From assembly GCF_000012925.1 (NCBI RefSeq), contig NC_007517.1, positions 3,900,001 through 3,932,000 on the forward strand: a stretch of 32,000 bases of DNA. Reading direction: 5' to 3'. The stretch comes from Geobacter metallireducens GS-15. GTDB lineage: Bacteria; Desulfobacterota; Desulfuromonadia; Geobacterales; Geobacteraceae. The notes below the pieces were generated by a model. The model made no database searches, was not told the origin of the DNA, and worked only from the letters and a program-made list of their open reading frames with translations. Both the position numbers and the translations under genes were made by a program. Shown one piece after another: positions 10,770-16,278 of this stretch; positions within the stretch are counted from its first letter, which is position 1, and every line of letters starts with the position of its first letter.

Positions 10770-10845
<76 letters not shown>

Positions 10846-11189: not shown

Positions 11190-11232
11190 CGAATTGCACC
11201 ATTCACAAGACTTTAAGCTACGGAGGTCTCTC

Positions 11233-12918
11233 ATGAAACTGCGAGTTGTCGTGATCGGAGCCAACGCTGCGGGGGCAAAGGCCGCCTCCAAGGCAAAAAG
11301 GATGAACCCCCATGCGGAGGTTACTCTGATCGAGCGGGGCAATTTTATTTCTTACGGCGCCTGCGGTATTCCCTATTTCGTTTCGGATACCGTAGCCGAT
11401 GTAAAAGAGTTGATGAGCACCCCGGTCGGAGTGGTGCGAGATGCAGCCTTTTTCAACAAGGTGAAGGGAGTCCACGTTATCACCGGAACCGAGGTGGTCA
11501 GCCTCGACCGGCAGTCGAGGACGGTCCAGCTGTTCGAAAAGGAGAGCGCGAAAGCCTTCTCCCTTGAATACGACCGGCTGGTTCTGGCCACGGGGAGCTC
11601 GCCGTCCCTTCCACCGTTGAAGAACCGGGATCTTGGCAACATCCTGACGGTCAAGGCCATTGAGGATGCGGAACTGCTGAAAGAGCGGGCCGTGACGGGA
11701 AAGAGAGCCTGTATCGTCGGCGGCGGTCTGATCGGCCTGGAAACGGCAGAGGCCTTGAGGCAGAAGGGGTTGGAGGTCACGATCGTCGAGATGCGCGACC
11801 AGCTTCTGCCGGGAATACTGGACCCGGAGATGGCGAGTCTGGTTGAAAGGCATATCCGTCAGAACGGTGTCGAGGTTGAGACTTCTTGCCGGGTGGCCGG
11901 TTTTGACGGCACCGGAGTAGTGAATAAAGTTCTGACCGAACGGGGAGAGATCCCGGCTGACGTGGTGGTACTGGCACCAGGGGTGACGCCGAACGTGAAG
12001 CTGGCGAAGGAGGCCGGATTGGAGATCGGCCCCACTGGCGCCATCGCCGTCGACTCCCGCATGGGGACCAGCGACCCGGCAATCTACGCCTGCGGTGACT
12101 GCTGCGAAACCACCCACTTGGTTACCGGGAAAAAGGTTCATGTCCCCCTCGGCAGCACCGCCAACAAGCAGGGGAGGGTCGCCGGGATAAACGCATCCGG
12201 GGGGGAGGCAACCTTTGCCGGAATCCTCGGCACCAGCATCCTCAGGGTCTTCAGTGTCAACGCCGGGAAGACCGGCCTCACTGAATCCGAGGCGAGGGCA
12301 CAGGGGTATGACGTCGAAACCGTCCTCTCGCCGGCCCCCGACAAAGCGCACTTTTTCCCCGGCGCGAAACCGATCGCCCTAAAGCTCGTGGCAGACCGGG
12401 CTACCGGGAGGATTCTCGGGCTTCAGGCTGTCGGCGAGGGGGCCGTGGACAAGCGGGTGGACGCCGCAGCCGCGGCCATTACGTTCGGCGCCACCGCCGA
12501 CCAGCTTTCGCACCTGGATCTGGCCTACGCACCCCCCTACTCAGCCGCCATGGACAACCTCATCGTGGCCGCGGATATCCTGAAGAACAAACTGGCCGGC
12601 CACGCCAGGGGTATCTCCCCCCGAAAGGTGAGGCAGATGCTGGATGATGGCGACGACTTCATCCTCCTCGACGTCCGCTCTCCCGCGGAACATGCAGAGG
12701 TCGGCATCGAGGGGGCCACGCTTATCCCCCTGGGGGCATTGAGGGAAAAGCTGGAGAGTCTCCCCAAGGACAAAGAGATCGTCACCTTCTGCAAAATCAG
12801 CCTCAGAGGCTACGAGGCCCAGAAGATCCTCGATGCTGCCGGCTTCAGGGATGTCAAGTTCCTGGATGGCGGCATAATGACGTGGCCCTATGAACTTCGA
12901 CGCGGCGGAGGAGCCTGA
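11233..12918 (+). CDS. FAD-dependent pyridine nucleotide-disulfide oxidoreductase (CoA-disulfide reductase / NADH oxidase class) fused to a C-terminal rhodanese domain
   Basis: Start MKLRVVVIGANAAGAKAA (FAD GxGxxG) with GGAGG 6 nt upstream. Redox Cys in SYGACGIPYF. Second dinucleotide fold ACIVGGGLIGLE. The C-terminal rhodanese has the active-site loop FCKISLRG. Confidence 0.88.
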   Translation: MKLRVVVIGANAAGAKAASKAKRMNPHAEVTLIERGNFISYGACGIPYFVSDTVADVKELMSTPVGVVRDAAFFNKVKGVHVITGTEVVSLDRQSRTVQLFEKESAKAFSLEYDRLVLATGSSPSLPPLKNRDLGNILTVKAIEDAELLKERAVTGKRACIVGGGLIGLETAEALRQKGLEVTIVEMRDQLLPGILDPEMASLVERHIRQNGVEVETSCRVAGFDGTGVVNKVLTERGEIPADVVVLAPGVTPNVKLAKEAGLEIGPTGAIAVDSRMGTSDPAIYACGDCCETTHLVTGKKVHVPLGSTANKQGRVAGINASGGEATFAGILGTSILRVFSVNAGKTGLTESEARAQGYDVETVLSPAPDKAHFFPGAKPIALKLVADRATGRILGLQAVGEGAVDKRVDAAAAAITFGATADQLSHLDLAYAPPYSAAMDNLIVAADILKNKLAGHARGISPRKVRQMLDDGDDFILLDVRSPAEHAEVGIEGATLIPLGALREKLESLPKDKEIVTFCKISLRGYEAQKILDAAGFRDVKFLDGGIMTWPYELRRGGGA

Positions 12919-13010: not shown

Positions 13011-13038
13011 TTGACAAAGCCTCATTGTGATGTACTAT
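13011..13038 (+). promoter_or_regulatory. Candidate sigma-70 promoter driving the riboswitch leader
   Basis: TTGACA (13011-13016), a 16-nt spacer, TACTAT (13033-13038). It lies about 25 nt upstream of the first aptamer. Confidence 0.45.
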
Positions 13039-13060: not shown

Positions 13061-13145
13061 GATAGACGACAATACTTAACCATTCGCGAGAATGGGGCGG
13101 AAAGCCTATAGGGTCTCATGGAGACAGCCGGGTTGCCGAAATATC
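13061..13145 (+). promoter_or_regulatory. GEMM-I-type cyclic-dinucleotide riboswitch aptamer, copy 1
   Basis: ...AATACTTAACCATTCGCGAGAATGGGGCGGAAAGCCTATAGGGTCTCATGGAGACAGCCGGGTTGCCGAAATATC aligns position for position with the Vc2 GEMM-I core (AAACC-AUUC-GNRA-GAGUGGG-ACGCAAAGCC...AGCGGGGUUACCGA). It has a GNRA loop (GCGA), the AAAGCC junction and GGGTTGCCGA. A occupies the G20-equivalent position (13074), and a C21/G46 pair covaries with the Vc2 G21/C46 pair. Confidence 0.8.
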
Positions 13146-13171
13146 ACACGATATTTGGTCCCGGCTTTTTT
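13127..13171 (+). terminator. Intrinsic terminator / expression platform of riboswitch 1
   Basis: GCCGGG (13127-13132) pairs with CCCGGC (13160-13165), with an inner helix CCGAAATATC/GATATTTGG, followed by T6. The 5' arm is shared with the 3' strand of the aptamer, so the two folds are mutually exclusive. Confidence 0.75.
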
Positions 13172-13268
13172 ATTGTGCAAACCATGACTGGAGGCCGAGC
13201 CGACAAGGAGTGCGTCTCTGACGTGGCGGTGCCTGTGGGCGCCGGAAAACTGCAACAAAATAGTTGGT

Positions 13269-13353
13269 GGTAGACGATAATACTAAACCATTCGCGAGAA
13301 TGGGGCGGAAAGCCTATAGGGTCTCCCTGAGACAGCCGGGTTGCCGAAATATC
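13269..13353 (+). promoter_or_regulatory. GEMM-I-type cyclic-dinucleotide riboswitch aptamer, copy 2
   Basis: Same architecture exactly 208 nt downstream of copy 1. The P2 hairpin loop differs (GTCTC-CCT-GAGAC against GTCTC-ATG-GAGAC) while the stem is kept. A again occupies the G20-equivalent position (13282). Confidence 0.8.
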
Positions 13354-13379
13354 ACGCGATATTTGGTCCCGGCTTTTTT
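13335..13379 (+). terminator. Intrinsic terminator / expression platform of riboswitch 2
   Basis: GCCGGG (13335-13340) pairs with CCCGGC (13368-13373), followed by T6 (13374-13379). Layout is the same as copy 1. Confidence 0.75.
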
Positions 13380-13431: not shown

Positions 13432-14748
13432 ATGTACCGAATCGCTGACCTGCCCCTCTCTACCGCCTGTTTTCGCCTGATCGCTCTAGGGGTATGTATC
13501 CTATCCCTTCAAGGATGCGCTGTACTCAGGGGTGCCCAGGAGCAATCATCGCTTGCGCCAGGCCATCTTGCCGCGGAGATCGAACGAAATGACTTTCCCG
13601 TTGCCAATGGCGACGACGTCATTGGCCGGCTTGCCGTCCTCAGACTTGAACAGGGGGATACGCTCCCGGATATTGCGAGACATTTCGGTCTGGGGATCAC
13701 GGCACTCAGCGCCGCCAATCCGGGCATGGATGTCTGGGCGCCCGAGGCCGGAAAACCGGTCATCCTGCCCCTGAGCTTTGTCCTGCCGGACACCCCGAGA
13801 CGAGGGATTGTGGTCAACGTCGCCACAATGAGGCTCTTTCAGTACAAGGGCGATGGCGCCTCCCTGGCGGTATCCACCTACCCCGTCGGCGTCGGCACCA
13901 AGGAGCGCCCCACCCCCACCGGCCCAACGCGGGTGTATCGCAAGGCGGCCCGGCCGACCTGGCATGTGCCTGCTTCAATTGCCGAGGACCATCGAAAGAA
14001 GGGGGATCCGCTCCCCCCGGAAGTTCCGCCGGGGCCGGAGAATCCCCTGGGGGAATACGCTCTCTACCTGAGCAAACCGGGGTATCTGATCCATGGCACG
14101 AACAAGCCGGCCAGCATCGGGCTTAAGGCAACCAATGGCTGTATGAGGCTCTATCCGGAAAACATCGAGGTGCTCTATAACGACACGCCGGTCAACACCC
14201 CGGTGGCCATTGTCAACCAACCCTACCTCATCGGTCAACGGGACGGGGTGCTTTACCTGGAAGCCCATACCCCGCTGGAAGACGCAGGCACTCTCGAACT
14301 GACGAAGGTGTATGAAAAGTTGAGAGCCATTGAAAAGAAAACAGGCCGTGCGCTTGACTGGACAAAAATCAGAAAAGTTCAGGCCGAGGCCCGGGGGATT
14401 CCGGTTCCCATCCTCGAACTGCGCCAGGGAAGTGAAAAAGGGATTCCGCAAACCATGGAAGTCGGGCACCCCGACACACTGCACGGCAGACCGGAAATAC
14501 CGGACCTGAAACCGGATGCCTGGTATGTTCTGGCTGCCGATGTGCGTAACGAGCTTGAGGCCCGGAGGATTGCCGCCATCATCAACCACCAGGGCCCTCC
14601 GATACCGGCACGGGTCTTGGCAAAGAACAACGCCTACCGTGTCATCGCCGGCCCGTTCGCTGATGGCAGTAGGGCCAGGGATGCGGCCAAACGCCTGAAG
14701 ATCGATTTGGAAATCGACGGCATATTGATTGATCCTGCTGGGAAGTAG
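13432..14748 (+). CDS. L,D-transpeptidase lipoprotein of the ErfK/YbiS/YcfS/YnhG type, with LysM-like N-domain, YkuD catalytic domain and C-terminal SPOR domain
   Basis: Start MYRIADLPLSTACFRLIALGVCILSLQGC (lipobox). LysM-like segment LRLEQGDTLPDIARHFGLGITALSAANPG. YkuD core LPDTPRRGIVVNVATMRLFQY...PENPLGEYALYL...YLIHGTNKPASIGLKATNGCMRL (catalytic His and Cys). SPOR-like tail WYVLAADVRNELEARRIAAII...YRVIAGPFADGSRARDAAKRLK. Confidence 0.88.
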   Translation: MYRIADLPLSTACFRLIALGVCILSLQGCAVLRGAQEQSSLAPGHLAAEIERNDFPVANGDDVIGRLAVLRLEQGDTLPDIARHFGLGITALSAANPGMDVWAPEAGKPVILPLSFVLPDTPRRGIVVNVATMRLFQYKGDGASLAVSTYPVGVGTKERPTPTGPTRVYRKAARPTWHVPASIAEDHRKKGDPLPPEVPPGPENPLGEYALYLSKPGYLIHGTNKPASIGLKATNGCMRLYPENIEVLYNDTPVNTPVAIVNQPYLIGQRDGVLYLEAHTPLEDAGTLELTKVYEKLRAIEKKTGRALDWTKIRKVQAEARGIPVPILELRQGSEKGIPQTMEVGHPDTLHGRPEIPDLKPDAWYVLAADVRNELEARRIAAIINHQGPPIPARVLAKNNAYRVIAGPFADGSRARDAAKRLKIDLEIDGILIDPAGK

Positions 14749-14799: not shown

Positions 14800-15102
14800 A
14801 TGAAAGGGATTCTCTTGCTGATCGCAATGCTGCTCGTTCTCCCTGTCACCATGATTGGTTGTGCAACCTCCGGTGACCTGGAGAGAGTGCAGGCGGATCA
14901 AAGAATGCTTGATGCGAAAGTCGAGCAGGCAGTGCAGGATGCACAAGCAGCCAAGGCCTCAGCCGATGCGGCCAAAGCAAAGGCAGATAATGCCACAGCC
15001 CGCGCCGATAGTGCTATAAAGGCGGCTGAGGAAAGGGAACGGATCGCCGATGAAAAGGCGAAAAAGGCTGACGCTACTTTCCAGAAATCCATGAGGAAGT
15101 AA
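14800..15102 (+). CDS. Braun-lipoprotein-like (Lpp-like) alanine-zipper lipoprotein ending in Arg-Lys
   Basis: Strong RBS AAGGAGGTGA 8 nt upstream. Signal plus lipobox MKGILLLIAMLLVLPVTMIGC. The mature part is an Ala/Lys/Asp-rich coiled coil (LDAKVEQAVQDAQAAKASADAAKAKADNATARAD) that resembles E. coli Lpp ([34 protein letters not shown]). The C-terminus is ...KSMRK, compared with Lpp ...KYRK. Confidence 0.8.
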   Translation: MKGILLLIAMLLVLPVTMIGCATSGDLERVQADQRMLDAKVEQAVQDAQAAKASADAAKAKADNATARADSAIKAAEERERIADEKAKKADATFQKSMRK

Positions 15103-15148
15103 GGCACATTCAAGGGGGCCGTCGCGTTACCTGCGACGCCCGGACAAG

Positions 15149-15178
15149 AAATGGCAGGGTCCACGCGCCCTGCCATTT
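15149..15178 (+). terminator. Strong hairpin after the lpp-like gene (possible partial terminator or attenuator)
   Basis: AAATGGCAGGG (15149-15159) pairs with CCCTGCCATTT (15168-15178), an 11-bp perfect stem. The U tract is only short and interrupted (TTTCCTTATCC). Confidence 0.45.
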
Positions 15179-15276
15179 CCTTATCCGGCAGGTGGGTCCG
15201 GCCGGACATTTTGAACATACGGACATCAGGCTCCCGGAACGGGATATTCCTGATGATTCCAGCAAGGGGTGAGGAG

Positions 15277-16278
15277 ATGAGGGGACCGGAAATCTTTCGC
15301 CGTGGACCGTCTGCGGAATCAGGACGGTCTTTGGCCGATACGGCAACAAAACAAAGCCGGCCGGGCAAACGCCTTAGCTTTTTTCGTATCGGCATCCTGG
15401 TAACACCGATGCTCATGGCGGGATGCGGTCACCTTCAGTCCAAGCCGACCTTTGAAGAAGCGAATGACTTGTTTAATCAGGGAAGCTACCAGGCCTCGCT
15501 GAGCAAATACGAGCAGATTGTCGACCAGCAACCTGCGGCGGGCGACAGGGCTCTCTTCGAGATGGGTATCGTTTATTCGTACCCGAAGAACGAGCGCAAA
15601 GATTATCAGAAATCCCTGGAGTGCTTTCAGCGGGTCATAAAGGATTATCCCGGGAGCCACTACCGGCAGAACAGTCAGACGATGGCATCGTATATCAATA
15701 CTGTCCCGGTCAAGGACGCGACGATTGCCACGCAGCAAACGAGGATCGAGGCCCTCCAGCGCGAGCTCACGGGCAAAGAGGATGAGATCGCTGCCCTGCG
15801 GGGAAAGATTGAAGCGCTTGAAAAAAATGTGTTTGCCTACGCCATCCGGAAGCCATCGCTCGACAAGATCCTGATAGAAAAACAGGCACGACGCATGATG
15901 CTGATCTCAAAGGGGGCGGTGCTCAAAACCTACAGGATCGCCCTGGGGGGAGACCCCATCGGCCCGAAAGAACGGCAAGGCGACAACAAAACCCCGGAAG
16001 GAGCCTACACCATCGATGCCAGAAACAGGGATAGCCGTTATCACCGGGCTCTCCATATCTCCTATCCCAACGAGAGGGACAGGAAGCGCGCCCGGGAACT
16101 CGGAGTCTCCCCGGGCGGAAACATCATGATCCACGGCATCAAGAATGGTTTCTCGTGGGTTGGAGATGCTCACGCAGGGGTGGACTGGACAAAGGGGTGC
16201 ATTGCCGTAACGGACGAGGAAATAGAGGAAATTGACACGTTGGCGCCCAATGGCACCATTGTCGAGATCAGGCCATAG
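15277..16278 (+). CDS. YkuD-domain protein of the YafK/LdtF(DpaA)-like type with N-terminal TPR-like and coiled-coil regions; probable lipoprotein
   Basis: Catalytic domain ...GPKERQGDNKTPEGAYTIDARNRDSRYHRALHISYPNERDRKRARELGVSPGGNIMIHG...WTKGCIAV. It resembles E. coli YafK as I recall it (GPKQRQGDFKSPEGFY...MIHG...GC). TPR-like segment FEEANDLFNQGSYQASLSKYEQIV...FQRVIKDYPGSHY. Lipobox-like LMAGC. The start is uncertain: ATG at 15277 or 15253, or a TTG further downstream that gives a normal signal peptide KRLSFFRIGILVTPMLMAGC. Confidence 0.75.
   Translation: MRGPEIFRRGPSAESGRSLADTATKQSRPGKRLSFFRIGILVTPMLMAGCGHLQSKPTFEEANDLFNQGSYQASLSKYEQIVDQQPAAGDRALFEMGIVYSYPKNERKDYQKSLECFQRVIKDYPGSHYRQNSQTMASYINTVPVKDATIATQQTRIEALQRELTGKEDEIAALRGKIEALEKNVFAYAIRKPSLDKILIEKQARRMMLISKGAVLKTYRIALGGDPIGPKERQGDNKTPEGAYTIDARNRDSRYHRALHISYPNERDRKRARELGVSPGGNIMIHGIKNGFSWVGDAHAGVDWTKGCIAVTDEEIEEIDTLAPNGTIVEIRP

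Follow-up and report, generated by a model that had tools for sequence, protein, structure and literature searches.

The closest described relatives of the leader analysed here come from Geobacter sulfurreducens and from Geobacter metallireducens itself. In G. metallireducens, the RNA elements Gmet_R3015 and Gmet_R3016 were annotated 5' of Gmet_3485-Gmet_3487, with matching product names (Aklujkar 2009; PMC2700814, Additional file 5). A 2025 study lists the riboswitch as 'Gm3485', gives its ligand as cGAMP for both Nelson 2015 and Kellenberger 2015, and names as its targets the two L,D-transpeptidase genes Gmet3485 and Gmet3487 and the Lpp/OprI lipoprotein gene Gmet3486 (PMC12285248, Table S2). 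The tandem pair is already known, as it was annotated in 2009 and placed in the cGAMP-selective class in 2015.

Likewise, the leader of the operon GSU0183-0181 in G. sulfurreducens contains two annotated riboswitches, GSUR3002/GSUR3001, called GSU0183a/b (Hallberg 2019; PMC6456294), and several of the 17 GEMM-I elements of this species are arranged in tandem (PMC6456294). The deletion of gacA, the gene of the cGAMP synthase, changed the riboswitch RNAs by a log2 of about -2.7 to -3 and the GSU0183-0181 genes by -4.1 to -4.7, and the tandem was down ~16-fold without GacA; after the deletion of esnD, both GSU0183a/b and GSU0183-0181 were up ~2-fold (PMC6456294). The GacA dependence of the operon is known for this orthologue only, and the GacA protein of G. 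metallireducens, Gmet_1914, is encoded outside the window (PMC6456294). Given the 2009 annotation of the pair and the in vivo support for its orthologue in G. sulfurreducens, the discovery value of the pair itself is small. At a broader scale, tandem c-di-GMP-I riboswitches were catalogued in 2022 (347 doublets and 12 triplets), and complete riboswitches in series were described there as 'pseudo-cooperative', with a more digital response (PMC9481103).

The window, i.e., the whole 32-kb stretch of the G. metallireducens GS-15 genome that was analysed, very probably carries two complete and independent GEMM-Ib (3',3'-cGAMP-type) transcriptional ON riboswitches, placed in series in the 5' leader of Gmet_3485-3487. 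The cmscan search of the whole window returned three matches above the Rfam gathering thresholds: two plus-strand matches to RF01051 (c-di-GMP-I/GEMM-I), with E-values of 4.1e-05 for the first and 5.7e-06 for the second, and one tRNA. Both RF01051 matches scored above the curated gathering score of 35 bits, and both alignments span model positions 1-87 of 87. The scan with the locus-specific covariance model R1 revealed no third copy in the 32-kb window. The two aptamers, which belong to the same class and are both complete, share one leader without an intervening gene. Only two ORFs overlap the leader, an antisense frame of 94 aa and one that extends the transpeptidase gene upstream in frame, and neither was called as a gene. 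The tRNA match is a tRNA-Asn (GTT) at 10770-10845 (64.4 bits in Rfam), and a CoA-disulfide-reductase-like gene with a rhodanese domain (11194-12918) lies downstream of it. The coordinates of the leader and operon features are presented in Table 1.

Table 1. Features of the tandem leader and of the operon Gmet_3485-3487; positions are those of the window.
Feature	Position	Strand	Evidence and remarks
Promoter-like site TTGACA-16 nt-TACTAT	13011..13038	+	consensus scan, 10/12 matches; putative function
GEMM-I aptamer 1	13064..13140	+	RF01051 41.9 bits; model R1 101.6 bits; P2 loop AUG
Intrinsic terminator 1	13126..13171	+	stem 13126-13166, T6 13166-13171; -21.3 kcal/mol, z -4.88
Spacer between units	13172..13271	+	differs between copies; without promoter-like site
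GEMM-I aptamer 2	13272..13348	+	RF01051 45.4 bits; model R1 103.1 bits; P2 loop CCU
Intrinsic terminator 2	13334..13379	+	stem 13334-13374, T6 13374-13379; -21.3 kcal/mol, z -4.56
Gmet_3485, lipoprotein L,D-transpeptidase	13432..14748	+	Pfam YkuD 2.2e-21, SPOR 9.9e-11, weak LysM 9.7e-4
Gmet_3486, Lpp/OprI-family alanine-zipper outer-membrane lipoprotein	14800..15102	+	Pfam PF11839 6.7e-13
Gmet_3487, second lipoprotein L,D-transpeptidase, TPR repeats + YkuD	15409..16278	+	Pfam YkuD 4.5e-17

Both copies carry the motif AACC-ATTC-GCGA-GAATGG together with GCGGAAAGCC and AGCCGGGTTGCCGA. In each of them, P1 is the hairpin CCAUUC-GCGA-GAAUGG, closed by a GNRA-type GCGA tetraloop and accompanied by the conserved junction GCGGAAAGCC, and the P2 stem GUCUC/GAGAC is the same in both, with the loop ATG in copy 1 vs CCT in copy 2. 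The pairwise alignment of units 1 and 2 showed only 6 mismatches over ~110 nt, three of which fall in the P2 loop, and the pairwise comparison of the 100-nt spacer showed no conservation between the copies. The 11-nt GAAA receptor was absent from the P2 of both aptamers, whose P1 loop is GCGA. The lack of this receptor is expected for a GEMM of the GYRA type.

A permissive E-value scan placed the c-di-GMP-I-GGC family, RF03167, marginally above RF01051 in bits, yet its scores of 46.4 and 44.2 bits are far under its own gathering score of 59. As the scores stay below this cut-off and position 47 is A, not G, the GGC variant does not apply here and was rejected. The matches to hya, mir-73 and drz-agam that Rfam gave in the leader have E-values of 2-6 and were treated as noise.

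The specificity of the aptamers was analysed on the covariance-model alignment. In RF01051, 11 unpaired 5' positions are followed by a two-pair helix, and the consensus G at position 11 is the equivalent of Vc2 G20. Both copies have A there with maximal posterior (13074 and 13282), A as the A47 equivalent (13101 and 13309) and C as the C92 equivalent (13128 and 13336). The pairs next to position 20 are C-G and U-G vs the consensus G-C and C-G. The combination of A20, A47 and C92 in one pocket is the GEMM-Ib signature, and, judged from the aligned pocket, both elements belong to the GEMM-Ib (3',3'-cGAMP-type) class and most likely sense 3',3'-cGAMP.

These results agree with the sequence-only reading, in which two GEMM-I elements exactly 208 nt apart had been aligned by eye to Vc2. 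The offset recurs as the distance between the starts of the two matches, the motifs and the changed P2 loop on an unchanged stem are all present, and the A proposed for the Vc2 G20 equivalent is what the model alignment gives in both copies. The same is true for the claim that the G21-C46 pair is flipped to C-G, while the identity of position 92, which had been left for checking, turned out to be C. Moreover, the proposed cGAMP-type ligand fits both the entry of 'Gm3485' as a cGAMP riboswitch (PMC12285248) and the GacA-dependent orthologue of G. sulfurreducens (PMC6456294). Inspection of the sequence by eye was enough to recognise the GEMM-Ib aptamer with its specificity position and expression platform.

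Position 20 is described as a selectivity factor and not as a hard filter, and a protonated adenine can allow cGAMP riboswitches to bind c-di-GMP (PMC9262584). Promiscuous binding by the A20 aptamers might let the tandem leader sense c-di-GMP as well and the operon integrate both dinucleotides in vivo, which we consider unlikely; were it so, the tethering of the outer membrane to the peptidoglycan would be tied to the cGAMP/c-di-GMP balance. It is quite improbable that the aptamers are promiscuous or effectively c-di-GMP-responsive in vivo to the point that the operon tracks c-di-GMP or the sum of the dinucleotides. Apart from the binding mode mentioned above, this alternative draws on Gm0749, another G. 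metallireducens element, which is tabulated as binding both ligands (PMC12285248), and on anode biofilms of G. metallireducens, in which Gmet3485-3487 were significantly up (log2 +1.15 to +1.82) in a strain that had been engineered for higher c-di-GMP and had lower cGAMP, and only by +0.2 to +0.43 log2 in the higher-cGAMP strain (PMC12285248). The rise in the high-c-di-GMP, low-cGAMP strain is a caveat on strict cGAMP-only control in vivo, and the authors of that study suggested that c-di-GMP may act through GEMM-I riboswitches (PMC12285248). However, these values were obtained on pooled electrode biofilms that differed in thickness, with ELISA-based dinucleotide measurements, and the authors themselves advise caution; moreover, the same source gives Gm3485 as cGAMP under both 2015 studies (PMC12285248, Table S2). 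In G. sulfurreducens, the orthologous operon loses its expression without GacA to the extent given above and rises when the deletion of esnD lowers c-di-GMP (PMC6456294), which argues against this alternative.

Both aptamers have an intrinsic terminator of their own, a long, bulged 17-bp hairpin with TTTTTT after it, as had been proposed by eye for both units; the z-scores of the hairpins were taken against dinucleotide shuffles. A generic terminator scan detected neither of them, its only match being the minus-strand P1 hairpin; it is blind to both terminators because their stems are long and bulged. In the minimum-free-energy fold of the whole unit (-39.8 kcal/mol) the terminator is formed, and the aptamer alone reaches -22.5 kcal/mol. 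The 5' arm of the terminator, AGCCGGG, consists in both units of the same nucleotides as the 3' strand of the lower P2, including the C92 equivalent. Competition of this kind between terminator and P2 was described for GEMM elements in 2007 (PMC1950547). The overlap predicts that ligand binding raises expression, and the modelled geometry is consistent with the ON switch that had been suggested from the letters.

The consensus scan found three sigma-70-like sites, all of them upstream of unit 1, and the best of these is likely the single promoter of the whole leader. It is very improbable that the units are not in series and that unit 2 has its own promoter, with two independently regulated transcripts and no multiplied decision, because, although the 100-nt spacer is dissimilar between the copies, the consensus scan gave no sigma-70-like site within it (13172-13271), the ORF-free spacing of 129-229 nt (median 217) is conserved across 33 related loci, and in the tandem omcAHG leader of G. 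sulfurreducens the RNA-seq signal falls progressively over the successive riboswitches (PMC6456294).

With two ON riboswitches in series, the leader would work as follows. Transcription would probably start ~15-20 nt upstream of aptamer 1. A ligand captured by the nascent aptamer would lock P2 and the junction and thereby hold back the terminator 5' arm AGCCGGG, and if there were no ligand, the more stable terminator hairpin would form and RNA polymerase would halt at the T6 run. The full-length mRNA would require two successive read-through decisions. As their probabilities would multiply, we infer that basal expression would be lower and the response to cGAMP steeper (pseudo-cooperative). 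This expectation follows the standard model of complete riboswitches in tandem (PMC9481103) and matches the steeper, more digital response that had been proposed from the letters. The signal would be the cGAMP produced by the Hypr-GGDEF cyclase GacA (Gmet_1914).

The first gene downstream of the tandem leader is Gmet_3485, the product of which is identical to ABB33690.2 / WP_004513642.1 of G. metallireducens. The product of Gmet_3486 is identical to ABB33691.1, and Gmet_3487, a gene of 289 aa called here on the public contig, has the lipobox LMAGC after the ATG at 15409. In E. coli, it is enzymes of the YkuD class that link Braun lipoprotein to the peptidoglycan. As the operon pairs a lipoprotein of the Lpp/OprI type with two YkuD L,D-transpeptidases, cGAMP may control the tethering of the outer membrane to the peptidoglycan. 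The operon genes are still labelled 'uncharacterized' in the literature, and the operon could connect cGAMP signalling with this tethering.

The Lpp-like gene is separated from the second transpeptidase gene by a spacer of 306 nt. Its part 15103-15200 folds at -47 kcal/mol (z -3.6), and a hairpin of ~15 bp near 15146-15181 has no T-run after it. In the equivalent spacer of G. sulfurreducens, a 'predicted RNA' was annotated from RNA-seq. The folded part of the spacer might set the ratio of the Lpp-like protein to the transpeptidase.

To place the doublet in a wider context, 80 genomic loci with relatives of the first transpeptidase were scanned using Rfam and model R1, and the counts are based on the 42 loci of Geobacterales in which a close match lies upstream of the transpeptidase gene. 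A doublet was present in 31/42 loci and a triplet in 2/42, and the remaining 9/42 had a single element, at least three of these singles being at contig ends. In the 33 related loci with more than one copy, the start-to-start spacing stayed within the range given above, and no ORF was located between the copies. Within the 42 loci, A20 was found in 71/77 aptamers, A47 and C92 in 77/77, and CCGG(C/T) with a T-run after 75/77. Taking all the aligned matches, A47 and C92 were invariant (86/86). The 36 distinct orthologous aptamers had 99% of cells paired and five pairs with double changes, which 0/500 shuffles equalled. GEMM-I was absent at all 20 transpeptidase loci tested from Nitrospirota and other MAGs, the homologues of which are 65-70% identical.

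Across species, copies in the same position (a-a and b-b) share a higher identity than copies a and b of a single genome do (a-b). This means that the duplication is old and preceded the radiation of the family; concerted evolution or a recent re-duplication of the copies was rejected on the same grounds. On this comparative evidence, the doublet that precedes the envelope operon is of ancient origin and occurs in nearly all Geobacteraceae. What is mildly new in the present analysis is comparative only, namely this near-universal doublet and the mixed A20/G20 leaders of a few relatives.

Such mixed leaders were observed in five Geobacteraceae loci, L012:2621-2911, L017:2612-2916, L044:2614-2910, L007:2437-2937 and L018:2437-2934. 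Three of them have the pattern A,G, one has A,A,G and another A,G,A. Nearly all of their aptamers keep the terminator, and three G20 copies have a 4-T run only. Mixed A20/G20 leaders could be two-input gates (cGAMP AND c-di-GMP) and, if the dual reading considered above were true, they would be its explicit two-input versions. The 2022 catalogue of tandem riboswitches has no entry of a mixed A20/G20 pair (PMC9481103). The leaders of L007 and L018, both MAG loci, are at the same time the two triplets, i.e., triple GEMM-I tandems before the transpeptidase operon, with a spacing of ~210 nt.

In more distant relatives, a single G20 GEMM-I element was found (L015:825-911, L024:2892-2978 and L036:1919-2005), which ends 23 nt before the start codon and is not followed by a T-run. 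These features point to c-di-GMP control at the level of translation, and not of transcription termination, in the same gene family. An additional G20 GEMM-I lies directly downstream of the three-gene operon in two loci (L017:5993-6072 and L019:5212-5292). The element in L019 has its best Rfam match in RF03167 with 61.3 bits (cut-off 59), though its position 47 aligns as A.

Compared with the known systems, the annotated pair Gmet_R3015/Gmet_R3016 ('Gm3485') of strain GS-15 is the same pair of elements as the one analysed here and differs in nothing. GSU0183a/b of G. sulfurreducens precede the orthologous operon (SPOR-YkuD transpeptidase, lipoprotein and TPR-YkuD transpeptidase) and likewise form a leader with two riboswitches; as far as the published description allows a comparison, their starts are ~200 nt apart vs 208 nt here, and the flanking genes differ. 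The elements Gs1761 (pgcA) and G. metallireducens pilM (Gm0970) are also transcriptional GEMM-Ib ON switches with A20 and with competition between terminator and aptamer. However, they are single units and regulate a cytochrome gene and genes of pilus assembly, respectively, whereas Gm3485 is a tandem, and the structural and kinetic data are those for Gs1761/Gm0970, not for Gm3485.

The common fold, with a P1 capped by a GNRA loop, a P2 and the A47/C92 pocket, is shared with Vc2 of Vibrio cholerae, the canonical RF01051 aptamer. Unlike the present pair, which has A20, the C-G pair and the GCGA loop, Vc2 has G20, c-di-GMP as the ligand, the G21-C46 pair and a GAAA tetraloop. In terms of layout, the tandem TPP riboswitches of Bacillus anthracis and the triple c-di-GMP-I riboswitches of B. 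thuringiensis likewise consist of complete units, each with its own terminator, in front of one operon. Among the pseudo-cooperative tandems, the leader described here stands out by its ligand, cGAMP, whereas the 2022 catalogue pools the A20 subclass within c-di-GMP-I (PMC9481103).
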